Numbered from the stretch's first letter, positions 3,035 to 60,321 are shown. The stretch: 64,000 bases of DNA from an uncultured Candidatus Saccharibacteria bacterium (GCA_964585425.1 CAZPDI010000001.1:4804-68803), one strand, 5' to 3'. Translations and numbers: made by a program. The notes: generated from the letters alone by a model not told the origin.

Positions 3035-3136
3035 ATGCTTATTGTAGCAATTTGGCGACTGTTATGCGACAGTTCAGGGGAACATTTATACGAAAAATCC
3101 TTTGGGATGATCCTTGTTCAAAAAAACACTTTTTTG

Positions 3137-3191
3137 CTTATTGCAACTTTGTGGCATTAAGGGGGTCTTATCGCAACTAATTCGCAATAAG
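3137..3191. promoter_or_regulatory. Pair of 25-bp palindromic operator-like boxes (Fur/Zur-family-like)
   Basis: CTTATTGCAACTTTGTGGCATTAAG followed by CTTATCGCAACTAATTCGCAATAAG. Near-identical boxes occur at 60255-60308 next to the Fur-family gene. Confidence 0.5.
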
Positions 3192-3279
3192 CAAACAAGC
3201 CGTTTTTTAGATAGAACCCCGCCCCAGCCCCTGGCTTAAAGGCAAAAGATATGCTAGAATCTGCTAGTTACCCAACCAC

Positions 3280-3365
3280 GCGCGAGTGGTGGAATGGTAG
3301 ACACGCTGGCTTCAGGTGCCAGTGGGGGCAACCCCGTGGAGGTTCAAGTCCTCTCTCGCGCACCA
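3280..3365 (+). tRNA. tRNA-Leu (anticodon CAG)
   Basis: 7-bp acceptor stem GCGCGAG/CUCGCGC. Anticodon stem-loop CUGGC-UUCAGGU-GCCAG. Long variable arm UGGGGGCAACCCCGUG, T-arm GGUUCAAGUCC, and an encoded CCA end. Confidence 0.8.
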
Positions 3366-9977: not shown

Positions 9978-10011
9978 GACAAAGCCAACCTACTACCCCG
10001 AAAGAGGTCCC
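9978..10011. repeat. 5' box of cassette 1 (GACAAAGCCAAC..CCGAAAGAGGTCCCG)
   Basis: Repeated at 10404-10437 before cassette 2. Its reverse complement is found after each stop codon. Confidence 0.6.
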
Positions 10012-10269
10012 GTGACCAAAATCACGAACCGCAGCATCGCTCCTGCTGGCAGCATCTCCCAGATCGCTCAGCTCCACCAGGACGGAGAGATCGACCGCGA
10101 CCAGACCACTCAGGTGATCGAAGTGGTTGCGGAACATGCCGCAGAGGCGCCAAACACCTGTCCGCGCTGTCAGCGCGCCAACTGCCCAGTGACGAGGGGC
10201 GGCAACTGCCAGTTGCCAGACATGAAGGTGGTGGATCACCTGGTTCGTCAGCTGCAGACCTCCAACTGA
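10012..10269 (+). CDS. High-GC small zinc-ribbon-like protein
   Basis: GTG start 3 nt after AAAGAGG. CPRC-x4-C-x7-C cysteine arrangement. GC3 nearly 100%. Confidence 0.5.
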   Translation: MTKITNRSIAPAGSISQIAQLHQDGEIDRDQTTQVIEVVAEHAAEAPNTCPRCQRANCPVTRGGNCQLPDMKVVDHLVRQLQTSN

Positions 10270-10270
10270 T

Positions 10271-10320
10271 CTCGAGTCGGTCCTATGGGATCGAGGGGCG
10301 ACGAGGCTTGGCTTTGTCAC
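10271..10320. repeat. 3' box of cassette 1 (hairpin GGTCCtatGGGATC plus GGCTTGGCTTTGTCAC)
   Basis: The 11-bp core TTGGCTTTGTC is the reverse complement of GACAAAGCCAA in the 5' box. The extended region is an imperfect inverse of the 5' box. Confidence 0.55.
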
Positions 10321-10335
10321 CCCCTTATAAAATAG

Positions 10336-10364
10336 TTGACTTTACATGATTATTAAAGTATAGT
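10336..10364 (+). promoter_or_regulatory. Predicted sigma70 promoter for cassette 2
   Basis: TTGACT, 17-nt spacer, TATAGT, in an AT-rich spacer. Confidence 0.5.
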
Positions 10365-10403
10365 TATTGTCATGCTTGCATACGAAGTATGCGCGCACCT
10401 TAC

Positions 10404-10437
10404 GACAAAGCCAACAACTACACCGAAAGGGGTCCCG
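10404..10437. repeat. 5' box of cassette 2 (GACAAAGCCAAC..CCGAAAGGGGTCCCG)
   Basis: Copy of the 9978-10011 box, immediately before the ATG. Confidence 0.6.
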
Positions 10438-11169
10438 ATGGGATCTTCTGGAATTCTGGGGTTTCCCAAGGCTGCACACCGCGCCCCCACCATCAGCGAG
10501 GGGTACCAGGAGTACGTCGAGGAGATGACCGGCCTGGCCGTGTGCATGATCTGCGATAGCGGAACATGCCCCGGCGCCAGTGGACGCGCTTGCCCCTATG
10601 AACTCGACGTCTGCACCGTCTGCTGGCAGCTCGACTGCATTAGCGTCTTCGGTCACGACTGCCCTTCGGAGGAACGCTGCAACAACTGCGGTCACCTCCG
10701 GAACGAATTCGGCCATTACAGCAACTGCTCAATGCCCACAATGAAGCTGTGCGACGAGTGCGGGAGCGCAACCTGTCGCGTCAACCCGCCAAAGGAAATG
10801 CGAGAGGAGTACCCGTCGGACTACAATCCGTACTGGGATGACCACCACAGCATCTTCGATACGCTGGGCTGCCTCTTGGGTAGCCCGATCAGCGAGGAAG
10901 AACGGATCGCGGAAGAGATCGCATCGTGTTGGGCTCCGCGCACCGACCAGATGTCCCGAGATCGAGTACGGCAACAGATGCTGAGAACATGGATTGATCG
11001 TGATCTGGACAAAGCAGCTGAGGAAGCTCAGCAGCGCGCCGACCAGATGTCCCAGTCCATGCATCAGCTCACCGAGCTTGCGGACGACTACGACGACGGA
11101 CTGATCTCCGAGAACGTGGTTCTGATGCTCCTCCGGGCTGATCATCGCGGTGTACGGCTCTCCGGGTGA
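10438..11169 (+). CDS. High-GC cysteine-rich (multi-CxxC) protein with an acidic helical C-terminal half
   Basis: Start chosen at ATG 10438 right after the conserved 5' box. The longer 10372 start lies inside the AT-rich promoter. About 18 Cys in the first ~110 aa, in CxxC pairs. GC3 very high. Confidence 0.5.
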   Translation: MGSSGILGFPKAAHRAPTISEGYQEYVEEMTGLAVCMICDSGTCPGASGRACPYELDVCTVCWQLDCISVFGHDCPSEERCNNCGHLRNEFGHYSNCSMPTMKLCDECGSATCRVNPPKEMREEYPSDYNPYWDDHHSIFDTLGCLLGSPISEEERIAEEIASCWAPRTDQMSRDRVRQQMLRTWIDRDLDKAAEEAQQRADQMSQSMHQLTELADDYDDGLISENVVLMLLRADHRGVRLSG

Positions 11170-11209
11170 CCTTTGAGGGTCGGTGAGCGTCAAGGCTTGG
11201 CTTTGTCAC
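11168..11209. repeat. 3' box of cassette 2 (hairpin GACCtttgagGGTC plus GGCTTGGCTTTGTCAC)
   Basis: Same 16-nt core as 10305-10320, inverse of the 5' box. Confidence 0.55.
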
Positions 11210-11275
11210 TCACCTAAGTGTATATACACGATAAATACATTTAGGTGAGTATTATTAAGATAAACACAACTTCTA

Positions 11276-11304
11276 TTGACAAATAGGGTTTAGTTTGCTA
11301 TACT
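11276..11304 (+). promoter_or_regulatory. Predicted sigma70 promoter for cassette 3
   Basis: TTGACA, 17-nt spacer, TATACT. Confidence 0.5.
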
Positions 11305-11365
11305 TATGCGCAATCTGGTGGAACACCCATCCGATAGAACACAGACCACAACCCAAGGAAAGCCC

Positions 11366-12103
11366 ATGTCTCAGCTCGTCATCGTCCAGGGCCCCAAGCC
11401 CCGCACGTCCGCGGTGTCCGACAAGGATGCCCACAACCTCCGCCTCCAGGCGGACAAGGTGCTGGCCAGGCACCGCGGTGATCTCCCCCAGGAGATCGTC
11501 ACGCAGCTGACCAGCCCGATGCCCGGCATCGTGGGCATGGGACTGCACGACGCGGCCTCCTGGATCAAGCAGCGCACCGCCAACCTCAAGCTGCAGTACG
11601 TGCAGCAGCACCCCGACTGCGAGGCGGCCATGGCCCTCAAGACCCGAGTCGACAACGTCCTCAACGGCGAGTTCGGCGACAAGGTCAAAAAGAGCCTCGA
11701 CATGCGTGGTCAGCGCATCCTCGAGCTGGACCTGTACCAGATCTTGAGCACCGACCAGCTGAAGAGCTTCGCCCACTTCGTCAAGAAGGCCGAGGCAGTC
11801 GAGGGTCGCTTGCAGACCGAGAAGGCACGCAAGGCGGTGCCGGCCCAATCGCTCCAGATGCTGTTCCCGTCCAAGGAGAAGCGCGAGCGCAAGCCGAAGA
11901 AGGTCAAGCCGGCCTACGCCGGTCTCCCCGCACCGTCCACCGGGATCGTCACCGACTGGAAGAGCGACGTCGGCAGCGTCGGTGCCCCGAACCCCCAGGG
12001 TCCGGCGCCGGCACGCGGCGTCACCCTCCGCAAGTCCGACAAGGCTCGCGCCAAGGGAGTGAAGGGTGGTGGCGTCAAGACCCGTCCGGGGCGACGCAAC
12101 TGA
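11366..12103 (+). CDS. High-GC hypothetical protein with a lysine/arginine-rich C-terminal tail
   Basis: AAGGAAAG RBS. GC3 about 95% in this frame. The antisense ORF 11273..12130 is rejected as a GC artefact. C-terminal tail reads KEKRERKPKKVK...KARAKGVKGGGVKTRPGRRN. Confidence 0.5.
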   Translation: MSQLVIVQGPKPRTSAVSDKDAHNLRLQADKVLARHRGDLPQEIVTQLTSPMPGIVGMGLHDAASWIKQRTANLKLQYVQQHPDCEAAMALKTRVDNVLNGEFGDKVKKSLDMRGQRILELDLYQILSTDQLKSFAHFVKKAEAVEGRLQTEKARKAVPAQSLQMLFPSKEKRERKPKKVKPAYAGLPAPSTGIVTDWKSDVGSVGAPNPQGPAPARGVTLRKSDKARAKGVKGGGVKTRPGRRN

Positions 12104-12119
12104 CCAGTTGATCTGCGTT

Positions 12120-12154
12120 CCCCGAGTCATGACATCGTCGTCATGGCTCGGGGG
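12120..12154. terminator. Hairpin between convergent cassette 3 and uvrA
   Basis: CCCCGAGTCATGA ... TCATGGCTCGGGG inverted repeat. Confidence 0.35.
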
Positions 12155-30028: not shown

Positions 30029-30088
30029 ATAAGCTTCCTTTTATCTGGTTAGATTATAGCAAAGCCGGCACATTTGCACCACAATTAC

Positions 30089-30117
30089 TTGATTAAATAT
30101 TACTTTTATAGTAGAGT
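30089..30117 (+). promoter_or_regulatory. Predicted sigma70 promoter for the 30.2-kb cassette
   Basis: TTGATT, 17-nt spacer, TAGAGT. Confidence 0.4.
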
Positions 30118-30135
30118 TTGCTTATTCTTTTACAA

Positions 30136-30150
30136 TCTAGCTAATCAGCC
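30136..30150. repeat. Left inverted repeat TCTAGCTAATCAGCC
   Basis: 14 of 15 positions match the reverse complement of 30607-30621. Confidence 0.55.
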
Positions 30151-30181
30151 CACCACAACCAAACAAACAAAGGAGCGAGCG

Positions 30182-30556
30182 ATGATCACATGTGAAGTGC
30201 AGGACCAGGCTGGCGGGAAGTCCACGAGCGTCATCACCCTCGGTGATGCCCTGGCTGCCGTTGCCTACCTGATCGGCATCAGCGGGAACTCCCAGCTTGA
30301 GTACCACGAGCTGATCGAGGGCCAGTCGTTGACCATCATCTCGGAAGGACATGCCCTCGTTGGGCAGATCGAGATGCCGGACTTCGAGGAGGAGGAGCCC
30401 TACTTCGGCCTGATGTACACCTTCTCCAGCAACGGCGATCGCGACTTCGAGCTGTTCAGCCTGCTGGTTCTGCCGGCAATGTTGCTGAACCTGCAGCAAT
30501 GCGAACCGCAGGTGATCATCGAGCTCGAGCGGATGCGCCAACCGGTGACCGCCTGA
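30182..30556 (+). CDS. High-GC hypothetical acidic protein (124 aa)
   Basis: AAGGAG RBS 7 nt upstream. GC3 high. No family recognised. Confidence 0.5.
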   Translation: MITCEVQDQAGGKSTSVITLGDALAAVAYLIGISGNSQLEYHELIEGQSLTIISEGHALVGQIEMPDFEEEEPYFGLMYTFSSNGDRDFELFSLLVLPAMLLNLQQCEPQVIIELERMRQPVTA

Positions 30557-30575
30557 GGTTGCGGTGAGTAGGCCA

Positions 30576-30593
30576 GGTTCCCTCCGGGGAATC
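30576..30593 (+). terminator. Hairpin GGTTCCC-TCCG-GGGAATC
   Basis: Same hairpin type as the GGTCCC..GGGATC family. No immediate T-run. Confidence 0.35.
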
Positions 30594-30606
30594 TGTGCCG
30601 ACCACC

Positions 30607-39315: not shown

Positions 39316-39942
39316 CTACCAGTCGAAGTATTTCTCAATTTCGGCATGCAGTACGGCTAACGGATCTTGATCATCCGTATGCTTAGCATCTTCCGGGGCA
39401 GCAGCATCGGCTTTATTCTTTGGCTTAGCCTTGGGTCGCTTCTTTTTATAGGCCAAGGTGCTTTTGAGGTTGTTCATAAAATGGAGGTAAGGCTCAAACA
39501 TTTCTTCTTTATACAGGGCCGAGTATTTATTTCGATTCGGTATGATGAGCGTTTCAAGCTTGTCTTGTTCTATAAAGTACTTCACCAAGCACTGGAAGTC
39601 GCCGTCACCGCTTATCACAATTGCTTTATCGTATTTGTCATAATCTATCATGGCCTGCAGCACCAGCTCGGCGTCACAGTTACCCTTGGTGGTGCCGTCT
39701 TTATGCTCGATAGTCGGTTTATAAATACATACAAAACCGGCCGCCTCCAAGGTGTTATAGAGGTCTTCGTGCCCCTCAATAAAACCCACAAAAATATAGG
39801 CCTTCACCACGTTGTAATTTTCGGCTAGATAGGCTCGGAAACGCTTATGATCAAGCGGCCAGCCCATTTCGCGAATGGAGAGGTTGAGGTTTTGACTATC
39901 GATAAATGCATAATTGCCGAGCTGGTCGGTCTTGGGTTCCAT
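39316..39942 (-). CDS. NYN-domain (LabA-like PIN-fold) protein
   Basis: FIDSQN...GNCDAEL...SGDGDF motifs of the NYN/LabA nuclease fold. Confidence 0.65.
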   Translation of the reverse strand: MEPKTDQLGNYAFIDSQNLNLSIREMGWPLDHKRFRAYLAENYNVVKAYIFVGFIEGHEDLYNTLEAAGFVCIYKPTIEHKDGTTKGNCDAELVLQAMIDYDKYDKAIVISGDGDFQCLVKYFIEQDKLETLIIPNRNKYSALYKEEMFEPYLHFMNNLKSTLAYKKKRPKAKPKNKADAAAPEDAKHTDDQDPLAVLHAEIEKYFDW

Positions 39943-39977: not shown

Positions 39978-40006
39978 TTGCATTATGTCGCAAAATATGA
40001 TTAAAT
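39978..40006 (+). promoter_or_regulatory. Predicted promoter of module 1
   Basis: TTGCAT, 17-nt spacer, TTAAAT. The TGATTAAAT block recurs in the 40688 promoter. Confidence 0.35.
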
Positions 40007-40040
40007 AGTATGGTTCTGCTACCTATCCCTAAGGATTCCA

Positions 40041-40415
40041 ATGAATGCACCTGCCCGTCCCATGCCCGACATCACCGATGTGGAGCTGACCAAGAAGATC
40101 ATCGATGAACGTGTGAAGCACCACAACCTGCGCCATGAAGATGGTGAAGCGATCTGGATGGTAGTCACGGCCATCGGTCATGCCATCAAGATCGGTGATC
40201 CTCAGTACAGCCCGATGATCGACCGCAACGTCACGGGGCTGCGCAACGAGGCGAGGCCAGGCGAAGTTCCGGTCATCTTGCTGTCCGACCTGAACCGCAT
40301 CTTCTGTGACGACACGTTGATACGCGAGCTGCAGCGGGTGTTCCCGAGCATCGTCAATGATGCGGCGCGCGTTGCCTGCTGGAAGTTCCGCAACTGCATG
40401 TACGGATGCGACTGA
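40041..40415 (+). CDS. High-GC hypothetical protein (124 aa), module 1 gene A
   Basis: TAAGGAT RBS. GC3 high. No family recognised. Confidence 0.45.
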   Translation: MNAPARPMPDITDVELTKKIIDERVKHHNLRHEDGEAIWMVVTAIGHAIKIGDPQYSPMIDRNVTGLRNEARPGEVPVILLSDLNRIFCDDTLIRELQRVFPSIVNDAARVACWKFRNCMYGCD

Positions 40416-40417
40416 TC

Positions 40418-40627
40418 ATGCGCCTTCGGATCCCCTGGCGCAAGCAAACCGTGCCGCCGCCACCCGCGACTGTCGCGATGAAGGCTGCGCCCCTGGTGCC
40501 GCCACCTCATCGCCGGATGACGGCCGAAGAACGCGCTGCGTGCTGCCAAGATCAGAGGAAGATCAAGCTGCGTGCTGCCAAGCGTTGTCGGCGCAAGGCC
40601 CGAAAGCGCCGACTGCGCAACAAGTAA
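40418..40627 (+). CDS. Pro-rich/basic small protein, paralog 1 (alternative start 40406)
   Basis: GACTGATCATG junction with the upstream gene is conserved in paralog 42234..42467. Differences between the paralogs are often synonymous in this frame. Confidence 0.5.
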   Translation: MRLRIPWRKQTVPPPPATVAMKAAPLVPPPHRRMTAEERAACCQDQRKIKLRAAKRCRRKARKRRLRNK

Positions 40628-40645
40628 CCCCCGTGAGGCGGATCG

Positions 40646-40680
40646 CCGAAAGGTCCCTCTTGCGGGGGATCTTTCGTTAT
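40646..40680 (+). terminator. Family hairpin GAAAGGTCCC-tcttgcg-GGGGATCTTTC plus GTTAT
   Basis: 9-bp stem including G-U pairs, with a U-rich tail. Confidence 0.5.
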
Positions 40681-40687
40681 GGTGATA

Positions 40688-40716
40688 TTGATTTATACCT
40701 GTAAATGTGATTAAAT
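40688..40716 (+). promoter_or_regulatory. Predicted promoter of unit 2
   Basis: TTGATT, 17-nt spacer, TTAAAT. AAAGGAGAG RBS follows. Confidence 0.35.
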
Positions 40717-40750
40717 TTCCCTATTCCGTTTCGAGTCCAAAGGAGAGACC

Positions 40751-40984
40751 ATGACGGACGCACATGCCACGGCCGTCTCCACGGTCTATTTTTGGCTCGA
40801 GTACGAGTTGGGTATCGATAATCCTGATCACGTTGAACTGACCATGATTATCGAGAATGGCTGGCTGCGCTATCGGTGCCCGGCCCACGACATCACCCCG
40901 CTTGAAATCGCCCGCCTCGAAGCTGCCTGCCGGCACCACGCCCATTCTCTTGAAGTGCACCTGAACCTGGAGGTTCAATCATGA
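40751..40984 (+). CDS. High-GC small hypothetical protein (77 aa)
   Basis: AAGGAGAG RBS. ATGA overlap with the next gene. Confidence 0.4.
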   Translation: MTDAHATAVSTVYFWLEYELGIDNPDHVELTMIIENGWLRYRCPAHDITPLEIARLEAACRHHAHSLEVHLNLEVQS

Positions 40985-41733
40985 TTGTCCACAAGCACGA
41001 CATCGATACCGCAGCTCGTCTGGCCGCCAAAGAGCGGTTCATGAACGAGTCATGGCTGGATGATCGCAAGGTGCGATCATGGTTCGCTTGGCTCGGTATC
41101 CGTCCTGACGGTCATCAAGCATTGCGCATCTTGCGCGCTGTGCATGCCACGGCTGCCACCGTGCGTGAGTACAAGATCCACCATCGCCACACGCGCTTCG
41201 GTCGAACGATGCGCCTGCAGCGCCGGCTCCCACCGTGGCCCGCCAAGTACGCGGATACCCCGGTCATCAATGCCGCGCAGATGCTGCTGGTGACTCAGCG
41301 CACGGACTACATCCACCTCACGGAGCTGACGCGACCAATTACGGGTACCAGTTATCGGCACGGCGACAATCGACGCGTCGATATGGAAACGTGCAAGATG
41401 TTCCTGGAGAACGTGCAGAGCAAGTTCATGCGCGAAGCCGTTTGGTCAGATGAGTTGGTATGTATCGAGAGCTTTGCGCGGCTCGGCCTGACGCCCGATG
41501 AGCTGCTGGTGGCCGAGATGGCTCTGATCCGTCTGATGAGTAGGTATCGGCACGAAAAGGGGCTTACCTGGTATCTGATGCCGACCTATGGCAGCCGGAG
41601 CCGCCGCTTGCACACCCTCACCATGGGTGATTTCTTGAACATCACCCGATTTCTCCAACCCAACTATGGCGACACCGACATGGAGTTTCTCATGACGCTG
41701 GCCGATCGTCTGCGTTCGCGACTTGCGACCTGA
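40981..41733 (+). CDS. High-GC hypothetical protein (250 aa)
   Basis: GC3 high. Translationally coupled to the preceding ORF. No family recognised. Confidence 0.45.
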   Translation: MIVHKHDIDTAARLAAKERFMNESWLDDRKVRSWFAWLGIRPDGHQALRILRAVHATAATVREYKIHHRHTRFGRTMRLQRRLPPWPAKYADTPVINAAQMLLVTQRTDYIHLTELTRPITGTSYRHGDNRRVDMETCKMFLENVQSKFMREAVWSDELVCIESFARLGLTPDELLVAEMALIRLMSRYRHEKGLTWYLMPTYGSRSRRLHTLTMGDFLNITRFLQPNYGDTDMEFLMTLADRLRSRLAT

Positions 41734-41764
41734 TCTCGACACATACCCTCGCGGGGGCTTTTCT

Positions 41765-41798
41765 ACGGAAAGGTCCCTGCGGGGGATCTTTCGTTTAT
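41765..41798 (+). terminator. Family hairpin ACGGAAAGGTCCC-TGCGG-GGGATCTTTCG plus TTTAT
   Basis: Near-identical copy at 42492-42525. Confidence 0.55.
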
Positions 41799-41801
41799 AG
41801 C

Positions 41802-41830
41802 TTGCAATATCAATACTTTAAATGTATAAT
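41802..41830 (+). promoter_or_regulatory. Predicted sigma70 promoter of module 2
   Basis: TTGCAA, 17-nt spacer, TATAAT. AAGGAG RBS at 41849. Confidence 0.5.
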
Positions 41831-41859
41831 TTGTAAATCCGTACGACCAAGGAGTACCC

Positions 41860-42231
41860 TTGACCGAAGCCAATACCCTACCCAAGGCCGATGCCAGCGT
41901 CAAGCTGTCCGACGACATCATCGCAAGCTGCTACGAGGGCTGCGATCCCCGTGAGTCCGATCGAGCTCGCGGCTGCATCGCCGCCCTCAAGGACCTGCTA
42001 CGGCTCGCCGAGAAGACGCCGAACGACGCGCGCTACCAGGAGATCCGGGAGTTCGACGCCGACACCCTGACCGTTGGCCAGTTCATCACCCTGATGTACC
42101 TGCCGGCGATGTCGCCGAATCAGCCCCGCCAGCTGATGCGCAACGTGCGTAGCAACTGGGGGCGACTCAACCAGCGAGTTCTCATCGAGCTGCGAGACAA
42201 GCTGGATGAGCGCTACGAGCCCCAGGACTGA
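41860..42231 (+). CDS. High-GC hypothetical protein (123 aa), module 2 gene A
   Basis: TTG start 6 nt after AAGGAG. GC3 high. Not similar to 40041..40415. Confidence 0.45.
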   Translation: MTEANTLPKADASVKLSDDIIASCYEGCDPRESDRARGCIAALKDLLRLAEKTPNDARYQEIREFDADTLTVGQFITLMYLPAMSPNQPRQLMRNVRSNWGRLNQRVLIELRDKLDERYEPQD

Positions 42232-42233
42232 TC

Positions 42234-42467
42234 ATGGGCATCTGGAACTCTCGGCGCAAGAAGACGACACCACCGCCACCTCCTCCTGCACCTCCTCCGC
42301 CGCCCGCGGCTGTCGCGATGAAGACTGCACCACTGGCGCCGCCACCGCGTCGCCGAATGACGGCCGAAGAACGCGCCGCTCTCAAGCTGCCCAAAGTGAA
42401 GGCCCGGCAGCGCCTGGCCAAGAACCGACGCGCCAAGGTCAGGAAGCGCAAGCACAAGAAGTCCTGA
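42234..42467 (+). CDS. Pro-rich/basic small protein, paralog 2
   Basis: PPPPPPAPPPPPAAVAMKTAPLAPPPRRRMTAEERAA plus a K/R-rich tail. About 85% nucleotide identity to the 40418 paralog in the central part. Confidence 0.5.
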   Translation: MGIWNSRRKKTTPPPPPPAPPPPPAAVAMKTAPLAPPPRRRMTAEERAALKLPKVKARQRLAKNRRAKVRKRKHKKS

Positions 42468-42491
42468 TCGCGCCCCTGTGGGGACTTTTCT

Positions 42492-42525
42492 ACGGAAAGG
42501 TCCCTGCGGGGGATCTTTCGTTTTT
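42492..42525 (+). terminator. Family hairpin plus T5
   Basis: ACGGAAAGGTCCCTGCGGGGGATCTTTCGTTTTT. Confidence 0.55.
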
Positions 42526-42603
42526 AAATGAGAAAGACCCAGGATTTCTCCTAGGTCTAGGGGCCAGGGATTCGACTACCCTGCACCCCCATCCACAACC
42601 TGT

Positions 42604-43035
42604 TCACGCCTGCATATCAGGCGGCAAGGTGAAGGCGTCAGGGTACGAGATGACCAGATCATTATCGTTCAACGGATAGATCGCGCCCCAGTCCGTAAGC
42701 ACGAACCGTTCGCAGAACGTCTGATCCACAGCACGAGCATACGCTGGTATATCACGCAGATCGTCTTTCGTCAGCTCTTGCCCCCAGTAAAAGGTCCCTT
42801 TGTCATGAGAGTTGTGAGTAACGACCTTGTCATCAGGACATATGAATGTGTAGATCTCTGTGAAATCAAAGCCGATAGCCCCTTGCTGGTGCTTAACCCC
42901 GAGAGGGTCACGGCCTGCCGTGACGATGGCATCAACTCGAGACAACACGCCAGTCGGGTATATGTAGCGAGCCACCAACAACTTGGTGGCGACCACGTCG
43001 ATGTGCTTGGTCTGGCTTTCACCCTCGGTATCCAT
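42604..43035 (-). CDS. Hypothetical protein
   Basis: 143-aa ORF. No family recognised. Confidence 0.3.
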   Translation of the reverse strand: MDTEGESQTKHIDVVATKLLVARYIYPTGVLSRVDAIVTAGRDPLGVKHQQGAIGFDFTEIYTFICPDDKVVTHNSHDKGTFYWGQELTKDDLRDIPAYARAVDQTFCERFVLTDWGAIYPLNDNDLVISYPDAFTLPPDMQA

Positions 43036-43119: not shown

Positions 43120-43545
43120 CTAGAGCCCCTCTATAAATGTCTCGATAAAGCTATTCAGCTTGCTGCCAACTCGAGTAATGATCGAGTCTCGCTCCAAAAT
43201 CTTGGGCTTAGCTATTAATGTAGCGGCAATCTCATTGCGGCGTGGCTTGCGGCCAGTGAATAAGTAATCGTTAATCAGTTTTTGCAATTCATCGGTCATT
43301 AGACCTTCTTCAACACACATGGCCTCAAAAGCTTTAGCGCGCTCGACATTCCAGAACGAATCAAACTCACCAGCTACATCTTCAGGATTCTCGATCTTGG
43401 GTAGCGATCGGGCAATAAATTTCTCAATCAGCTCGCGCTTGCTACGCAGCACGGCATTGCCCATAAGCGTGTTATTAAGATTATCGATTATCTGAGCTTT
43501 TTTTGATCTTCCGACATAACCCCTCGCTTTGTGTCTATTGTACAC
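43120..43545 (-). CDS. Stand-alone fragment resembling the C-terminal helical domain of a type I restriction enzyme R subunit (possible remnant)
   Basis: 141 aa. The ..FW..E.AKAFE..C.EE.L....L.K.I..YLFT.RKP.R.EI...L..KPK.LER..I..R.. pattern is recalled from HsdR C-termini. No helicase or nuclease part and no hsdM/hsdS nearby. Confidence 0.3.
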   Translation of the reverse strand: MYNRHKARGYVGRSKKAQIIDNLNNTLMGNAVLRSKRELIEKFIARSLPKIENPEDVAGEFDSFWNVERAKAFEAMCVEEGLMTDELQKLINDYLFTGRKPRRNEIAATLIAKPKILERDSIITRVGSKLNSFIETFIEGL

Positions 43546-44283: not shown

Positions 44284-44393
44284 CGTGTCCGTTCTTCAAA
44301 GTGGGGTTTTTGAGCTCGAGAAAGTCGATGATGGGTTGGATACCTACCTTGGCCGAAGTAGTAACTTCTAGGCCTTTATCATTTATGTAGTGC

Positions 44394-44422
44394 TTGCTTT
44401 TTTATAAGTTTTATGCTAGTAT
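44394..44422 (+). promoter_or_regulatory. Predicted sigma70 promoter
   Basis: TTGCTT, 17-nt spacer, TAGTAT. AAAGGAAA RBS before ATG 44458. Confidence 0.4.
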
Positions 44423-44457
44423 ATACGCATCTTGGCCGTCTAGCAAAAGGAAACATC

Positions 44458-44868
44458 ATGCCAAGCGCACAGACCATCCTCCCTCTGACCGCCGAACAGG
44501 TGGCCATGCCCGTGACCGCTGCCATCCTCACCACGGAGGACATCATCGGCGACCACGGGAGGTACCCGAAGGACATCGCTCACAGCTTGTCCACCATCTG
44601 CGAGTTCCTGCAGGAGGTCAAGCGGGAGGTCAAGCAGAGTCCAAGGGCCTACCTCGGCTGGTTGGAGTTGGCGGATGAGAACGGGGTGCGCTTCAGCGAG
44701 CGCGATTACCCCAGCATCACCGCAGGGTTCCTCCTGGCCGTGATGGAATCCAGCGCCGCCTGGGGCACCGTGATGAAGCACGGTCCGGAGGACTACTGCT
44801 TCGAGCAGCTGAACATGCTGAGGACGGCGGTCTACGCCCTCCTCTTCAAGCGGTCGCTGGCTGGCTGA
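44458..44868 (+). CDS. High-GC hypothetical protein (136 aa)
   Basis: Start at the first ATG after the RBS. GC3 high. Confidence 0.5.
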   Translation: MPSAQTILPLTAEQVAMPVTAAILTTEDIIGDHGRYPKDIAHSLSTICEFLQEVKREVKQSPRAYLGWLELADENGVRFSERDYPSITAGFLLAVMESSAAWGTVMKHGPEDYCFEQLNMLRTAVYALLFKRSLAG

Positions 44869-44894
44869 GGTTCTTCCTCCGCCAGCACCACGCC

Positions 44895-44934
44895 CCACTC
44901 GGGGTCTTCTACGGAAGACTCCGAGTGGGTTTTT
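44895..44934 (+). terminator. Hairpin CCACTCGGGGTCTTC-TACG-GAAGACTCCGAGTGG plus T5 and CGTTTAT
   Basis: 15-bp near-perfect stem. The CTACGGAAG and TTTCGTTTAT tail is shared with the hairpin family. Confidence 0.55.
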
Positions 44935-44944
44935 CGTTTATGCC

Positions 44945-46777
44945 TTACTTTTTGTTATTAGCGGCGCGCTTGCGCATGGAGGGGTTGAGTTCGCGTTTGC
45001 GGAGGCGGAGACTCTTGGGTGTGACTTCCAATAGCTCGTCGTTTTCCAGGAAGTCGATGCATTGTTCGAGGCTAAAAATAGTGTGTGGCGTGAGGCGGAC
45101 AGTGCCGTCACTGGATGAGCTACGCATGTTAGTGAGGTGTTTTTCTTTACAGACATTCATTTCCATATCGTCACCGCGGCTGTTGAGACCGACGATCTGA
45201 CCAGCGTAGACTTTGACGCCAGGACCAACGTACATGGTGCCGCGTTCTTCGGCCATTTGCAGGGCGTACGGCGTGGTCGTGCCAGTTTCGAAGGCAATCA
45301 GGGCACCGTTACGAAGTTGCTGCAGGGCGGGACCTTGCGGTTCGTAACCAACCATCAAGCTGTTCATGATAATTGTGCCCTTAGTGGCAGTTACTAAGAC
45401 GTTTCGAAGACCAAGTAAGGCTCGGGTTGGGAGTTCGTACACCAGTTTAGTGACGCCAGCGGCGTTGGCGAACTGCTCTTTAACGGTGGCGCGGCGTTGG
45501 CCAAGCTCCATTTGGACGGCACCGACGTATTCGGCCGGAACTTCGATGATGAGCTCTTCGATTGGCTCCATGGTCTTGCCGTTTTCTTGCTTGGTAACAA
45601 CTTGCGGGCGGCCAACTTCTAGCTCGTATCCTTCGCGGCGCATAGTTTCGATGAGCACCGACAGGTGTAGTTCGCCACGACCACTAACTAAATTGCCAAT
45701 TCCGCTGGGCTCGACACGCAGGCCAATATTGGTCTCCAGTTCTTTTTCGAGCCGTTCACCGATTTGACGGCTGGTAGTAAACTCACCTTCTAGACCCTTG
45801 AATGGACTAGTGTTTGGTCCTAGGTAAATCTGCAATGTTGGAGCTTCGATTTCCAGCACTGGTAGAGCTTCGGGCTGTTCGGCATCAGCAATGGTTTCAC
45901 CAATCTTGGCGTTAGCAATACCAGTAAGCTGGATAATCTCACCAGCAATGGCGCTGTCCACCGGATACTTGCTCACGCCTTGGCTGGCAAACACGCCATC
46001 AACTTTGGCTTTAGATTGCTTACCGTCTTTATCGATAAGGGTAACAGCATCACCAGTTTTAACACTACCGCGGGTAATGCGACCAACAGCGTATTTACCC
46101 TTAAATGAATCATACGAGAGAGCAGTGACAAGCATCTGGAAAGGCTTATCGAGCTCTACGTCTGGCGCAGGAATATCGTTCTTAATGGCAGTAAAGATTA
46201 CCTCCAGGTTAGCATCTTCTTCGGGATTAGCTGGCACCCCGGCCCAAGCTTTACCGGCGCGACCAATGGCGTAATAAATTGGGTAAAAGAGTTGATCTTC
46301 GTGCACGGCCAGCTCGAGGAAGAGGTCAGCTAATTCTTCTTCGACTTCGGCAATACGACTACCTGGCTTATCAATTTTGTTAATAACAACGATAGGCTTG
46401 AGACCCATGGCAAGTGCCTTAGAAAGCACAAACTTAGTTTGTGGCATCGGACCTTCTTGGGCGTCGACTATCAGTAAACAGCCGTCTGCCATATTAAGGG
46501 TTCGCTCTACCTCACCACCAAAGTCGGCGTGTCCAGGCGTATCGATAATATTAATGCGGATATCATCGTGCTGCACGGCCGTAACTTTAGCGGTAATAGT
46601 AATACCGCGCTCGCGCTCTTGGTCGCCACTATCCATGATCAGTTCTTGACCCATCTCGGCCTGGTTATCACGAAAGATTTTTGACTGCTTTAACAGGCCA
46701 TCTACCAGGGTAGTTTTACCGTGATCGACGTGAGCAATAATAGCAATATTACGAATGTTTTTTGGATCTTGTTGCAT
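44945..46777 (-). CDS. typA: Translational GTPase TypA/BipA
   Basis: [23 protein letters not shown]-motifs. 610-aa BipA architecture. Confidence 0.95.
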
Positions 46778-54582: not shown

Positions 54583-54641
54583 AACAAATCCTTTTCTTGC
54601 TTTATAGCGCTATTATACATCTATTTTCATAAATTGCGAGC

Positions 54642-54688: not shown

Positions 54689-55771
54689 CTACCCTGTCCA
54701 GCGCTGACGCTGCAGATCCTCTACCTGCCAACGCAACGTTTGTCCCGCCCGGAATGGCACCACCCCGCCGATCTCTTCAGGCACAGCCCAGGGGATCCTC
54801 GACAACAACACATAATTGTCGTCTTGTGGGGGCTCGACGCCGTAGAACTTGCAACCAGCAATGGAGACAAACTGCTCCAGCCTCTCCGGCCAGTCCTCCA
54901 GACCACTGTCCTCGAACAGTTCCGCCAGCACCGGCAGAGCAACTGGTCCGGAATACACGCCGTTGTTAGGCTTTGCCTTCAGCTTGTCCTCGATTCGATG
55001 AGGCGCCGAGTCGCTACCGAAGAAGATCTTGGGCGGATCACCCGGCTTGACACTGAGCATCGCAGCCAAGATGGCTTGACGATCTTCCTCGGTCTTGGCT
55101 CGCGGCAAACAGGCATGATGCGGCTGATCGATGACACCATCGTGCTCAACGTCATTAATGGTCAAGCATGGATGATGAGCCGTGATGGTGGCAGCGACGT
55201 TGGCCGGCAGCTCCATGATGAGGTTGATGGCATCGGCAGAAGAGACGTGCTCGAAGACGATTCGCAGACCCGGGAATGCCTCATGCACCTCCATGAACAG
55301 CTCGAGGAACATCTGCTCAGCATGAGCGAGATCGTCGGTTGAGACTTCGCCGTGCACGTTAAGCACGACATCAAGCTCCTGCATCACTTCAAATACTGGC
55401 CACCCGTCGTGGATATCCCGCAAACCAAAACCCGAATGAGTCGTGGTGTTGTACGGATAATACTTGACCGAACAGAATCCGTTGCGACGTTCGTACATCA
55501 GACGGATGATCGCTTCATCAGTGTCTGGCGTGAGGTACAAGGTCGGCCACAAGTTCACCATGTTCAGGCCTTTCAGCCCTGCCTGCACCTCTTGCAGATA
55601 GTGGAACGCATGCATAGCGTCACTTACTGGCACCGGGTTGAGGTTTGGCATGAGCAAGGCGTAATGGAGATGACCAATGCTGGGACGAACAACATCTTTC
55701 AGCAGACGTCCTTGACGAACATGAACGTGCCAATCGCTCGGACGACGCATCTTGAGTGCCAAGTAGGGCAT
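54689..55771 (-). CDS. pyrC: Dihydroorotase, type II (E. coli-like homodimeric form)
   Basis: LKMRRPSDWHVHVRQG, LMPNLNPVPV, KYYPYNTTTHSGFG, VHGEV, RIVFEHVSS, AATITAHH, FFGSDSAPH, VVPFRAGQTLRWQV all align with E. coli PyrC. High GC. Confidence 0.85.
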   Translation of the reverse strand: MPYLALKMRRPSDWHVHVRQGRLLKDVVRPSIGHLHYALLMPNLNPVPVSDAMHAFHYLQEVQAGLKGLNMVNLWPTLYLTPDTDEAIIRLMYERRNGFCSVKYYPYNTTTHSGFGLRDIHDGWPVFEVMQELDVVLNVHGEVSTDDLAHAEQMFLELFMEVHEAFPGLRIVFEHVSSADAINLIMELPANVAATITAHHPCLTINDVEHDGVIDQPHHACLPRAKTEEDRQAILAAMLSVKPGDPPKIFFGSDSAPHRIEDKLKAKPNNGVYSGPVALPVLAELFEDSGLEDWPERLEQFVSIAGCKFYGVEPPQDDNYVLLSRIPWAVPEEIGGVVPFRAGQTLRWQVEDLQRQRWTG

Positions 55772-55807
55772 GGTGAGTCCTTTCGGGACGTTGTGAGTGA
55801 ACGAACA

Positions 55808-55827
55808 AAGGTGTGCCTAAGCACACC
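55808..55827. promoter_or_regulatory. Perfect palindrome AGGTGTGC-CTAA-GCACACCT in the pyrC leader
   Basis: 8-bp arms. Lies between the pyrC start and the pyrE terminator. Confidence 0.3.
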
Positions 55828-55871
55828 TCCATAACCATTACTATACACTATTATTCATAAATTGCGAGCGT

Positions 55872-55901
55872 CTGGGCCAGGGGAACTCTCCCCCGGCCCA
55901 G
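55872..55901 (-). terminator. Hairpin downstream of pyrE, preceded on the plus strand by TTCATAAATTGCGAGC
   Basis: CTGGGCCAGGGG ... CCCCGGCCCAG inverted repeat. Confidence 0.45.
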
Positions 55902-55923
55902 CGCGAACCGTTGAATACGGGGC

Positions 55924-56583
55924 TCAGGCTGCGAGTAACTGGACCCAGCCACCCTCGTACTGCGGGTTGACCTCATCGCGGTAGTGGGCACCGTGACCCA
56001 GCGCACCATCGACAACAATGGGCTTGCCAGCTTCACAGAGCGGACAAGCTTCGGCGTCGTAGGACGCGAAGTCCACGTGCGTCAGCTGCTCCAACCGGGG
56101 AACTCCGATGGCGTCAGCCTCCACACCGCCTCGGTTGCAGACGGCACTGATGCCGATCACCTCACCACCACAGGCTTCGATGGCCGCGCAGGTGCCCTGA
56201 ACCGAACTGCCAGTGGTCAGCAGATCCTCGATCACGAGAACGCGTTTGTTCTGCAGGTGCTGCGGGAAGCTCAGGCGATCGACCACGAAGTTGTTGCCCT
56301 CCTTGTCGGCCCACAGGCCAGGCACACGAAGACCCTTCTTGTGCAGTAGCCAGTTCGAGGCAGTGCTGGTGAGCGCCACGCCACCGGTTGCCGGTGATGC
56401 GACAACATCGAAACCGCCGTCGAATGGTCTGAGGAGATCCGAGACGATCTGGCTGAGCATCACTGGATCAGCGAAGATCGGGTCCATGCAGATGTAGCCC
56501 TCACCGTGTCCACCCTTCTTGTACACGAAGTGGTTGTCGAGAAAGACGGCTCCGACCTTCTGGAGGTACTCGAGAATGTCCAT
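55924..56583 (-). CDS. pyrE: Orotate phosphoribosyltransferase
   Basis: Start taken at MDILEY (TAGGAACG RBS). PRPP-binding motif VLVIEDLLTTGSS. High GC. Confidence 0.7.
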   Translation of the reverse strand: MDILEYLQKVGAVFLDNHFVYKKGGHGEGYICMDPIFADPVMLSQIVSDLLRPFDGGFDVVASPATGGVALTSTASNWLLHKKGLRVPGLWADKEGNNFVVDRLSFPQHLQNKRVLVIEDLLTTGSSVQGTCAAIEACGGEVIGISAVCNRGGVEADAIGVPRLEQLTHVDFASYDAEACPLCEAGKPIVVDGALGHGAHYRDEVNPQYEGGWVQLLAA

Positions 56584-56666
56584 GTGCGTTCCTAACGTGA
56601 GACGAATGCGCCAACTGGTCACATCCGAATTATTATCCTATTCATAAAAGTTATTTACAAGCATAA

Positions 56667-56734
56667 GTGTGTCGCCGGACGGGTGGGCAAAAAGTTTACA
56701 GTCCGAAGACCTTCTTCCTCCTCGCCCACCCGTC
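56667..56734 (-). terminator. Long-loop hairpin downstream of pyrF
   Basis: GGACGGGTGGGC ... GCCCACCCGTCC 12-bp arms. Confidence 0.35.
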
Positions 56735-56742
56735 CGAGCATG

Positions 56743-57675
56743 TCAGGCCGCCAGGCGAACTCGCTCGATGGTCTCGTGCATGTTGGAGGCCTCAGCTTCC
56801 GACGCCTCAGCCGGAGCCAGACCCTCGTACTGCTGGTTGTCGTGAGCATGGGTGATGCCGCTCGAGGAGTTGATGGCGATGCCAGCCTGCTGGCTGTTGT
56901 GTCCGTTCTGGTAGGCGGCTGCAGCGTCACCGCCCTGCTTGTTTCCTACCCCAGGGATCAGGATCGGAACCTGCTCGCCAACACAACGACGAACGTTGGC
57001 AAGGTCGTCGATGGACTCGGGACTTGCGCCGGCCACCACACCGACGTTGCCTCGCTTGTTCCAGCCCTCCAGGCTGGCGACGTTCTGTGCGACTCGCTCG
57101 TACAGGAAGCCCTCCATAGTCACGCCCATGAGGGTTGACGAGCAGGTATCAAGCTTCTGGAACTCCTCGGCGCCAGGGTTGGATGTACGAGTCAGTACGA
57201 AGACCCCCTTGTCGCCACGGTCCAGCCACGGGGCCATGGCCTGTGCACCCATGTAGTTGTGGACGGTGACTGCATCAGCTCCGCAGACGTCGTAGGCGAA
57301 CGAGGCGTAGGTGTCATTGGTCGCTCCGATGTCGCCGGCCTTGAGGTCAAGGATCTTGACGACATCTGGCGCGTGGGTACGCATGTGCTTGAAGAGCAAC
57401 TCCAATGCCTGGATGCCTTCATGGCCATGCTTGAGGTAGAACCCCAAGTTGGGTTTCATCCAGCCGACTTTGCCGGCCAGGGCCTCGACGATCGGGAACA
57501 AGAAGGTGGTGAGCGTACCGCAGATGCTGGCCCGCTGGAAGCCCTCCGGGATGCGTGTGATCACCGGATCATCCTCGCGATAGGTGCTCTTGAGCGTTGG
57601 GTCGAGACCGGCGCAGACTGCACGGTGCTGCCCGGCGTTCAAGGCCACGAGCTCCGAAAAGCTGAGGTCGGACAT
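56743..57675 (-). CDS. pyrF: Orotidine-5'-phosphate decarboxylase, type 2 (long form)
   Basis: Start taken at MSDLSF after GGAGAGGAG. VCAGLDP and DLKAGDIGATN (type-2 D.K.GDIG.T motif). High GC. Confidence 0.7.
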   Translation of the reverse strand: MSDLSFSELVALNAGQHRAVCAGLDPTLKSTYREDDPVITRIPEGFQRASICGTLTTFLFPIVEALAGKVGWMKPNLGFYLKHGHEGIQALELLFKHMRTHAPDVVKILDLKAGDIGATNDTYASFAYDVCGADAVTVHNYMGAQAMAPWLDRGDKGVFVLTRTSNPGAEEFQKLDTCSSTLMGVTMEGFLYERVAQNVASLEGWNKRGNVGVVAGASPESIDDLANVRRCVGEQVPILIPGVGNKQGGDAAAAYQNGHNSQQAGIAINSSSGITHAHDNQQYEGLAPAEASEAEASNMHETIERVRLAA

Positions 57676-57778
57676 GTCAGACTCCTCTCCCATCTGACGA
57701 TGAGATAGATTCGTGCGACCGAATTAGCCACATCCATATTAGTATGGTTTCTGGGACGCTTAAGAGCAAGCGTAAGAG

Positions 57779-59330: not shown

Positions 59331-60244
59331 AATGCCCCTAGTATGGCACTAAGTTGTTGCATTTGCCAGGTCTGAAAGTTCTTAACCTTGGGAATCGTTT
59401 CGCTGACCCCTACTACCGCTACGCCGGCTTGCTGGGCAGTCTTTTGCAACTGCTCCGTGACATCATTTACCGCCTGATTGTTATAGAGGAGTACTTTTAC
59501 CTGCCCCGACTTTAATACTGCTTCGAATGCTTGTATTTGCTGTGGGGTTGGCTCACTGCCGTTTTCGACCGATTGCGAAAAGCCAGTCGGAGTTTTGTCG
59601 GTCAAACCAAGATCCTCGATCAAATAGCCGGCCACTCGTTCGGTATAGGCCACGCCGCCATTCACCTGAGTAATTTTGCTGGTTAATTTTTGCATATCGG
59701 CAATAAAGTTTTGAGTGTTTGCCTTATAGCTGATCTCGTGCTCTGGGTCAATTGCAATCAGGTCATTCTGGATGGCTAAGGCCACCTCCTGGATGCGCGG
59801 CAGATCATACCAGAGATGCGGGTTATCATCCTGGTTGGATTTAAGAACTTCGCTGACATTGAGTATTGTTTTATCATTTTGTGGAGCCGCCTCTAAGAGC
59901 TTGTCCATAAACTCGTCGTAGCCCAGACCATTAACTATGATGAGCTGGGCAGATCCTAGCTGCGAGGCAGTTTTAGCGTCGGACTCAAATAAGTGCGGAT
60001 CAGCTTCGGGGTCGCTTAATATAGAAGTAACTTCGACATGCTCGCCACCTACCTGGGCCGCAATATCACCCCAAACGTTGGTGCTCGCAACGATTTGAAC
60101 TTTATTACTATCGTGCGCAACTTGATTCTTTGACTGCAAATATACCACCCCCCATATAAAGAATAGGGCCGATATAAGCATGGCGGCGCCGAGAGCAAAT
60201 GTTCGTTTTTTCGATATATGTGACATGTCTTTAAAATAAAACAC
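59327..60244 (-). CDS. Metal ABC transporter substrate-binding protein (TroA/ZnuA cluster-9 family)
   Basis: N-terminal TM/signal region. TroA-like fold length. ATGA overlap with the ATPase. Confidence 0.7.
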   Translation of the reverse strand: MFYFKDMSHISKKRTFALGAAMLISALFFIWGVVYLQSKNQVAHDSNKVQIVASTNVWGDIAAQVGGEHVEVTSILSDPEADPHLFESDAKTASQLGSAQLIIVNGLGYDEFMDKLLEAAPQNDKTILNVSEVLKSNQDDNPHLWYDLPRIQEVALAIQNDLIAIDPEHEISYKANTQNFIADMQKLTSKITQVNGGVAYTERVAGYLIEDLGLTDKTPTGFSQSVENGSEPTPQQIQAFEAVLKSGQVKVLLYNNQAVNDVTEQLQKTAQQAGVAVVGVSETIPKVKNFQTWQMQQLSAILGAL

Positions 60245-60254
60245 CTTTTTGCTT

Positions 60255-60308
60255 ATTGCAAATTTGTCGCATTAGTGATATCTTATTGCAACAAAGTCGC
60301 ATTAACGA
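60255..60308. promoter_or_regulatory. Pair of palindromic operator-like boxes in the divergent intergenic region
   Basis: CTTATTGCAAATTTGTCGCATTAG and CTTATTGCAACAAAGTCGCATTAA. Consensus CTTATTGCAAnnnnGTnGCATTA is shared with 3137-3191. Confidence 0.5.
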
Positions 60309-60321
60309 AAGATTAATAAAA

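Follow-up and report, generated by a model that had tools for sequence, protein, structure and literature searches.

A putative array of exchangeable GC-rich orphan-gene cassettes beside typA in a Candidatus Saccharibacteria genome

We analyzed a 64,000-nucleotide (64-kb) stretch of DNA from an uncultured Candidatus Saccharibacteria bacterium (GCA_964585425.1 CAZPDI010000001.1:4804-68803), here called the window, in which positions 39978-42530 form a block of ~58% GC in a chromosome of ~49% GC, as judged from the composition of the window. This island lies between an ABC-transporter/NYN gene pair and typA and holds three promoter-Shine-Dalgarno-open reading frame (ORF)-terminator units, all on the plus strand. 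In each unit, or cassette, an AT-rich sigma-70-type promoter (its -10 mostly TG-extended) and a Shine-Dalgarno site precede one or two GC-rich ORFs, and a long intrinsic terminator, itself GC-rich, closes the unit. The next promoter begins 12-18 nt past the terminator, so a terminator-promoter (T-P) spacer is repeated along the array. The predicted proteins fall into family A (acidic, helical, 77-124 aa), family B (basic, helical, 250-280 aa), and family S (Pro-rich, 68-77 aa, net charge +17 to +22). The features of the island are as follows, with the GC content of third codon positions given as GC3 and the isoelectric point as pI.

39978-40006, plus strand: promoter P1; TTGCAT at 39978-39983, 17 nt, TG-A-TTAAAT at 40001-40006, an extended -10
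40041-40415, plus strand: u1A, 124 aa, family A; pI 6.1, mildly acidic, predicted all-helical, GC3 0.77
40418-40627, plus strand: u1B, 69 aa, family S; Pro-rich, net charge ~+20, RRMTAEERA motif, K/R tail
40628-40680, plus strand: terminator T1; long hairpin, 3′ arm and tail GAAAGGTCCCTCTTGCGGGGGATCTTTCGTT; minimum free energy -27.5 kcal/mol, z -2.3
40688-40716, plus strand: promoter P2; TTGATT at 40688-40693, 17 nt, TG-A-TTAAAT at 40711-40716
40751-40984, plus strand: u2A, 77 aa, distant family A; acidic, pI 5.1, overlapping the u2B start by 4 nt (ATGA)
40981-41733, plus strand: u2B, 250 aa, family B; basic, pI 10, predicted all-helical
41746-41798, plus strand: terminator T2; 18-bp stem CCCTCGCGGGGGCTTTTC / GAAAGGTCCCTGCGGGGG with a UACG loop, then ATCTTTCGTTTAT; -36.0 kcal/mol, z -6.4
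41802-41830, plus strand: promoter P3; TTGCAA at 41802-41807, 17 nt, TATAAT at 41825-41830; 10 of 12 consensus positions
41860-42231, plus strand: u3A, 123 aa; TTG start, acidic, pI 5.1, GC3 0.84-0.85
42234-42467, plus strand: u3B, 77 aa, family S; PPPPPPAPPPPP, RRRMTAEERA motif, K/R tail, net charge ~+22
42473-42525, plus strand: terminator T3; 18-bp stem, UACG loop; -35.4 kcal/mol, z -5.9

Consistent with the first-pass annotation of this DNA, which had called a high-GC island, the six island ORFs have 56-66% GC (GC3 0.67-0.85), against 38-50% (GC3 ~0.36-0.56) for the flanking native genes, namely an ABC ATPase, two NYN genes, a truncated hsdR, and typA. Positions 40001-43000 run at 57-59% GC and the whole window at 49%, the latter lying within the 47 ± 3% of G1 clade Saccharibacteria (PMC7427843). 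In four of the six ORFs, GC3 (0.67-0.84) exceeds GC at the first codon position, which exceeds that at the second, an order indicative of real coding sequence under GC pressure. We compared the island with related assembly contigs that carry the working labels L001, L003, and L006 to L010. An assembly chimera was ruled out, since the host-island junctions are spanned by independent assemblies (L001 at 100% identity; L003, L008, and L009).

Reading of the sequence supports the three autonomous units that had been proposed, each with its own promoter. The TG-n extended -10 (TGATTAAAT) is common to units 1 and 2, and a promoter scan recovered P3 independently and reported an alternative promoter for unit 1. 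A near-copy of P1 (TATTGCAATATGTCGCAAAATATGATTAAATAGG) is found in L010, where it precedes a different gene, one of family B. Elsewhere in the window, a 31-nt promoter-like repeat (54611-54641 and 55839-55869, 81% identity, minus-strand ATGTATAAT) lies upstream of two native minus-strand genes, and repeated promoter modules are therefore not confined to the GC-rich cassettes.

All three units end in the same hairpin. The folded stems of T2 and T3 occupy 41746-41785 and 42473-42512 and are followed by the tail AUCUUUCGUUU; T3 is 91% identical to T2 across 54 nt, with the same 3′ arm and with 5′-arm changes that keep the pairing. The hairpin of unit 1 has a different 5′ arm, yet pairs with the common 3′ arm, and the centroid fold of T1 is an alternative short hairpin. 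A 27-mer, GGAAAGGTCCCTGCGGGGGATCTTTCG, is exact at 41767 and 42494 (0 expected in shuffles) and has a variant at ~40646. An 11-bp hairpin shared by all three units had been described earlier; the sharing stands, but the 11-bp version is only the 3′ half of the 18-bp UACG stem in units 2 and 3. Stabilities range from -33 to -36 kcal/mol (z -5.5 to -6.7) among T2, T3, and the L003 and L010 copies, T1 being weaker, and the stem pairing is retained in diverged copies through 5′-arm changes and in L010 through changes in both arms. The hairpin starts immediately past the stop codon in T1, 6 nt past it in T3, and 13 nt past it in T2. With a stable GC-rich stem-loop, a U-rich tract, and a position downstream of a stop, it has the predicted features of a Rho-independent terminator.

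Long UACG-loop hairpins number only three in the 64 kb, each after a GC-rich ORF. A genome-wide repeat or uptake sequence was considered for the hairpin and rejected, there being three copies only in the window. The exact hairpin pattern gave one match in 185,579 GTDB species genomes, a lone terminator after ndk in a Candidatus Saccharibacteria metagenome-assembled genome; a metagenome scan gave one unrelated chance match, after a greA-like gene, and IMG/VR gave none.

The second genes of units 1 and 3 belong to family S. They are paralogous (phmmer 1e-13 to 4e-16), u1B starts 2 nt past the u1A stop (TGAtcATG), and the junction GACTGATCATG is found at both A/S junctions, as had been pointed out before. 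The ~85% identity that had been given for the middle of the pair corresponds to a core of 86 nt at 87% identity (40454-40539 versus 42294-42379). In the called frame, this core differs by 7 synonymous and 4 non-synonymous changes, with a dN/dS ratio (omega) of 0.19, versus ~1.8 in both other frames, and omega is 0.35-0.49 among S-family pairs. A third S member (77 aa) stands at the corresponding position in L003 and reads MWGLRRKK...PPRRRMTPEERA...KARKRRLRNK. There, the rival overlapping ORF is shortened to 57 aa and is thus not the better conserved frame, the Pro-rich ORF being intact. A fourth, more distant member closes a three-gene operon in L007. These patterns bear out the Pro-rich frame that had been called and indicate that the small ORFs are real genes.

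No match to the S protein was found in 5.8 billion protein clusters, and no known ribosomal or housekeeping family matched it, an origin that the first-pass annotation had named as one that would undo its reading. u1B and u3B are missing from a 15-billion-protein public collection in which neighbor proteins from the same NCBI contig are present, and u1B was skipped by the gene caller in L001; the S genes are therefore unannotated. u1B also contains an internal 25-nt duplication at 32-nt spacing (40526-40582, GAAGAnCnnGCTGCGTGCTGCCAAG), the copies of which are read in different frames (AACCQ and LRAAK), and this duplication may have produced a tail that differs from those of the L003 and u3B relatives.

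The remaining genes of the island also have relatives on other contigs. u1A has homologues in the C terminus of L007 gene 1 (phmmer 9e-14) and in a partial gene of L003. A homologue of u2A lies upstream of the B-family protein P0025 in L006 (3e-6), and a search within a set of 25 sequences ties that L006 protein to the u1A-type one of L007 (5e-4). By way of these two intermediates, u2A is a distant relative of u1A. For u2B, we used a word search of ~15 billion proteins, an exhaustive HMMER search of 1.84 billion representatives, and a profile search of 5.8 billion clusters. The word search returned u2B itself and a relative of 86% identity, HMMER added two true relatives, and the profile search added one. 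These four, P0002 (86%), P0025 (44%), P0026 (37%), and P0028 (38%), are the only relatives among the ~15 billion proteins, and all lie on short GC-rich SRA-assembly contigs. The runs behind the short contigs L006, L007, and L010 are SRR22387770, SRR24362737, and SRR32548940; no paper was found to mention the SRA run accessions. An ankyrin-repeat HMMER match to u2B was rejected as repetitive and compositional. u3A is seen on its own genome's contig only; its residues 27-119 align colinearly, though weakly, with positions 166-274 of the family B profile (hhalign P 0.0016, probability 16%), and it is possibly a stand-alone relative of the B C-terminal domain.

The gene order around these relatives varies. 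In L007, a u1A homologue, a u2B homologue, and an S-type peptide follow one another in one tight operon with GGAGG sites and without AT-rich promoters. In L006, a u2A-type gene overlaps the u2B homologue by ATGA, as in the window. In L010, a P1-type promoter leads directly to a u2B homologue, followed by a similar type of terminator and then by a new promoter with a further GC-rich ORF. An acidic protein precedes the coupled basic one in every two-gene unit, with net charges of -2 and +20 in unit 1, -8 and +11.5 in unit 2, and -3.5 and +22 in unit 3. The cross-contig homologies of u1A, u2A, u2B, and u3A mean that these "cargo" genes are not arbitrary, and the island draws on a closed gene set, in which the orphan families A, B, and S occur together while their order is permuted. 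The earlier proposal of a variable cargo gene joined to one conserved partner does not survive this comparison, u1A having homologues in L003 and L007 and a u2B homologue intervening before S in L007. Its statement that the two ~124-aa proteins share no similarity is correct for u1A and u3A (global alignment z -0.7; phmmer found nothing), but both are tied to the A/B/S set, u3A weakly, and are not unrelated cargo.

A comparison of the window with L003 reveals how unevenly the array has diverged. Nucleotide identity is 58% in the S gene, 94.4% in T1-P2, 96.6% in u2A, 89% in u2B, and 97% in T2; the homology stops just past T2, and the third unit of L003 differs. Synonymous divergence (dS) is 0.08 for u2A and 0.27 for u2B, as opposed to 0.95 for the adjacent typA, which indicates that unit 2 moved between lineages long after their core genomes had diverged. 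u2B is a mosaic, the windowed synonymous difference (pS) ranging from 0 to 0.65 along the gene. Both u2A and u2B show an omega of 0.29 against L003, and the island ORFs are thus coding genes under purifying but relaxed selection. The alignments show that cassettes are lost, exchanged for others, or given other promoters from one related genome to the next, and that the breakpoints lie at the repeated T-P modules.

At least five further cassettes of like design, also on the plus strand, were found elsewhere in the window, for four sites in all including the main island.

~9990-12130, plus strand: island 2, between pepP and uvrA; ORFs 10012-10269, 10432-11169, and 11366-12103
30060-30600, plus strand: single cassette between ppa and a HAD hydrolase gene; ORF 30182-30556, 124 aa, GC3 0.76
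44380-44945, plus strand: typA-adjacent cassette; ORF 44458-44868, GC3 0.84; 16-bp UACG-loop terminator at 44894-44929

The units of island 2 have near-consensus TTGACA/TATAAT-type promoters and a common leader, GACAAAGCCAAC...CCGAAAGrGGTCCCG, and the first two end in a repeated hairpin of the island's own (10288 and 11177). Their ORFs are orphans, one of them Cys-rich with 16 Cys. Of the three units that fill the pepP-uvrA slot in the window, L008 and L009 have two; the middle one is absent, and the gap falls exactly between the hairpin copies. In the same two contigs, the first ORF keeps 19 N-terminal codons and its terminator around an unrelated interior. The cassette at 30 kb, with a promoter-like site, a CA-rich leader, and a hairpin, sits head-on in a long minus-strand housekeeping cluster, and its ORF has no Pfam match. 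The terminator at 44894-44929 is similar to that of the third unit in L003, which is otherwise unrelated (73% mean column identity over ~95 aligned nt), another case of a shared terminator with a different ORF. The GC-rich orphan ORFs number at least nine at the four sites, and all are on the plus strand, whereas native genes are almost all on the minus strand. The cumulative GC skew drops monotonically along the window. The cassettes thus appear to face the native genes head-on, and the same probably holds for replication.

Considered together, these results are best explained by a strain-variable array of three self-contained orphan expression cassettes in a hypervariable intergenic hot spot, exchanged by transformation, a reading to which we give a probability of roughly 0.6. 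Exchange would proceed by natural transformation and homologous recombination without a dedicated recombinase, the repeated T-P modules and the conserved flanking genes serving as portable homology, and the GC-rich ORFs would stem from a high-GC source that is as yet unsampled. Experiments have demonstrated competence and homologous recombination in Saccharibacteria (PMC10633639). Exchangeable cassettes that recombine at T-P modules, with the same design at three other sites of the window, are the main evolutionary point, and one that the first-pass annotation lacked. As for function, the basic B and S proteins may bind nucleic acid and the acidic A partners may mask or chaperone them, in an antitoxin-like or chaperone-like manner. 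From the charges, the Arg-rich motif, and the acidic partners, nucleic-acid binding by B and S is the most economical guess. The toxin/immunity, effector/chaperone, and nucleic-acid adaptor readings voiced at the first pass may yet apply.

The peptide N of phage lambda, an arginine-rich-motif peptide, offers a resemblance only. Like it, S has an Arg-rich, helix-like segment (PPRRRMTAEERAA, then the K/R tail), and its gene lies directly upstream of a conserved, predicted tetraloop RNA hairpin. Unlike it, S shows no sequence homology to N, and the hairpin is likewise found behind unit 2 and behind the o151 cassette, both without S.

Several points weigh against this interpretation. Only about five related contigs are at hand, mostly of 1-2 kb, so that the recombination picture comes from few comparisons. 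The presence of B without A in L010 weakens an obligate A-B partnership. No donor homologue for the GC-rich ORFs was found among the ~15 billion proteins, phages, plasmids, or IMG/VR, and horizontal transfer is consequently argued from composition alone. Finally, there is no family, defense-system, or confident fold match for the island proteins, so that function is inferred throughout. Pfam and PHROGs, run on the six island ORFs and the flanking genes, and NCBIfam and PADLOC, run on the island ORFs and four other cassette proteins, yielded no match to the island ORFs that rose above noise. PDB sequence and profile searches were empty. AlphaFold2 models were all-helical and of low confidence (predicted local distance difference test score of 59 for u2B and of 64, with six helices, for u1A), and the u2B model had no fold match in BFVD.

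The known systems closest to such an array are the minimal mobile elements (MMEs) of Neisseria (Saunders & Snyder 2002; Snyder et al. 2007), which we take as defined in the text of PMC3787668. As in an MME, gene content varies between conserved flanking genes (L003 has other content beside typA), composition is atypical (56-66% GC versus ~49%), and no mobility genes were found among the Pfam-scanned ORFs of the window, while the low dS relative to typA and the mosaic identity fit recombinational exchange, plausibly via natural transformation and homologous recombination in a competent organism (PMC10633639). Unlike in an MME, the content of the island is itself modular, being built of promoter-ORF-terminator cassettes with T-P spacers as internal breakpoints, its ORFs are all GC-rich orphans, and the design recurs at four sites on one strand. 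As far as that definition goes, the array matches it while adding standardized internal cassette boundaries and would be a new variant of MME-type exchange. A broader view, in which an undescribed recombinase-free cassette system uses promoter-terminator slots head-on to core genes for exchanging GC-rich orphans by transformation, with A/B/S as a new functional module whose possible targets are nucleic acids of the epibiont itself or of the actinobacterial, high-GC host, is doubtful.

Other explanations for the island were weighed against the same observations. The two-gene units could be type II toxin-antitoxin (TA) or abortive-infection-type modules in a defense island, with A as antitoxin and either B or S as toxin. 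TA operons likewise place a small acidic protein ahead of a translationally coupled basic protein, and here the stop and start codons of every pair are coupled or overlap (TGAtcATG, ATGA); the protein sizes are TA-like, each unit has its own strong predicted promoter, and the content is strain-variable in a region with restriction-modification genes (the HsdR C terminus at 43120-43545 in the window, and a Vsr-REase-Dcm system beside the L003 locus). However, no PADLOC, Pfam, or NCBIfam toxin or antitoxin model matched, and no similarity to known toxin or antitoxin families was seen. The role of basic partner falls to a helical protein of 250 aa or to a Pro-rich +20 peptide, and S looks disordered, unlike known toxins. 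The partners are permuted (A-S in the window, A-B, A-B-S in L007 with one acidic and two basic members, and B alone behind a promoter in L010) rather than obligate, and single-gene acidic cassettes (o151 and the 30-kb cassette) have no partner at all. We regard TA modules as unlikely. Somewhat less likely still is that the genes are native, fast-evolving, and lineage-specific, with a high GC3 that comes from GC-biased gene conversion in a recombination hot spot and not from a foreign source. This alternative to horizontal transfer agrees with the demonstrable recombination at the islands (mosaic dS, segment replacement), with the failure of every searched collection to yield a donor homologue, and with the AT-rich, host-like regulatory sequences. 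It is at odds with the shift in first-position GC and in amino acid composition (rich in Ala, Arg, and Pro), with a GC3 of up to 0.84-0.90, large for a 49% GC genome, and with the GC-rich pyrE and pyrF genes in the window, ordinary enzymes that look like conventional horizontal acquisitions.

A decayed remnant of a prophage or similar integrative element, derived from a high-GC donor such as a phage that infects the actinobacterial host and carrying moron-like early genes, would account for the small orphan ORFs with their own promoter and terminator, as is typical of phage morons, for a GC3 and amino acid composition that fit a high-GC source, and for the single tight operon of L007, which has GGAGG sites but lacks AT-rich promoters; fold-level hints of integrase core-binding domains, weak and of low confidence, point the same way. 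Against this, tblastn of u1A, u2B, and two island 2 proteins over 50,697 phage genomes gave no match, u2B was unmatched in 72,556 plasmids, blastn likewise gave no phage or plasmid relatives, and profiles of families B and S brought up no relatives in IMG/VR, just as the PHROG and BFVD searches were blank. The vicinity contains neither an integrase gene nor att-like direct repeats, and it has no structural or replication genes. Arrays of one to three genes with this design stand at four separate places in the chromosome instead of forming one element. A prophage origin therefore seems improbable. Saccharibacteria are obligate epibionts of Actinobacteria and encode machinery like that of type IV secretion systems (T4SS), which could favor reading the units as effector-chaperone pairs delivered to a high-GC actinobacterial host, the positive tails of S and B being T4SS signals, or S being a cell-penetrating or Pro/Arg-rich ribosome-targeting peptide. 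The C termini of S and B are K/R-rich, the acidic partners are like small secretion chaperones in size and charge, and the proteins are strain-variable and fast-evolving (omega 0.3-0.5). On the other side, the island protein sequences show no evident signal peptides or transmembrane segments, no secretion genes were found among the Pfam-scanned ORFs of the window, and GC richness of codons is unconnected with the site where a protein acts; the idea is purely by analogy, and we consider it very unlikely. Least credible is an integron-like array with the conserved hairpin as an attC-type recombination site. A conserved, imperfect hairpin does bound cassettes that are gained, lost, or replaced there, and the small, mostly orphan ORFs are all in one orientation. 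Unlike in integrons, however, no IntI or other integrase was found among the Pfam-scanned ORFs of the window, no GTTRRRY core lies in or beside the hairpins, and the near-perfect 16-18 bp stem with its U-tract is that of an intrinsic terminator, without the extrahelical bases or other features of attC. Every cassette has a promoter of its own (-35, 17 nt, -10) rather than being promoterless and Pc-expressed, and the breakpoints fit plain homologous recombination.

If exchange by transformation is correct, the T-P spacer as a breakpoint offers a simple, integrase-free route to cassette arrays. The genomes of Saccharibacteria are tiny and highly syntenic, few signs of genes transferred from the hosts have been reported (PMC7427843), and we found no description of GC-rich cassette islands in these bacteria in the literature searched. 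At least nine orphan ORFs, predicted to be strongly promoted and individually terminated and swapped faster than the core diverges, would constitute an accessory gene pool under active turnover, and the cassettes encode three new protein families of very small membership. The absence of the S peptide genes from public annotation indicates that small GC-rich island ORFs are overlooked. Host-interaction and defense genes of Saccharibacteria are largely uncharacterized, and the lineage is genetically tractable (PMC10633639), so that the cassettes could be deleted or moved.

The immediate neighbors of the main island are the following.

39316-39942, minus strand: NYN gene, divergent from P1
42604-43035, minus strand: orphan ORF, 143 aa, acidic, 53% GC, convergent with the island on its right side
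43120-43545: 141-aa ORF, truncated C terminus of a type I restriction R subunit (Pfam EcoR124_C, 2e-18)

The orphan ORF at 42604-43035 has its own terminator-like hairpin (42558-42535) and no family match. The ORF at 43120-43545 matches an R subunit only in the C-terminal part and looks like a remnant of a restriction system; the corresponding region of L003 holds an intact Vsr/putative endonuclease/Dcm methylase set, metK, and a DUF3800 gene. The position is thus a variable slot of the defense type. Beyond the truncated hsdR lie an NYN gene of 38% GC, the GC-rich orphan cassette with ORF 44458-44868, and then typA.

The rest of the window is an ordinary chromosome by Pfam, with uvrA, uvrB, uvrC, typA, a split transketolase, aldolase, GAPDH, rpe, and ppa, together with thioredoxin reductase, an ECF sigma factor, LytR-CpsA-Psr, an LtaS-like sulfatase, and ABC transporters. 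The ~45 larger ORFs scanned across the 64 kb gave only housekeeping, transporter, NYN, and restriction-modification fragment domains, and none of them was a recombinase, transposase, integrase, phage, or secretion gene. The minus-strand genes for an amidohydrolase, pyrE, and pyrF (54689-57693) have 56-62% GC and a GC3 of 0.66-0.78 and belong to ordinary enzyme families; they are likely to be conventional horizontal acquisitions from a GC-rich donor. An Rfam scan of the window gave a tRNA-Leu (3280-3365) as the sole match. Just upstream of this tRNA gene lies one copy of a 76-nt direct repeat of 80% identity, the two copies of which (3120-3195 and 60235-60310) are 57 kb apart.

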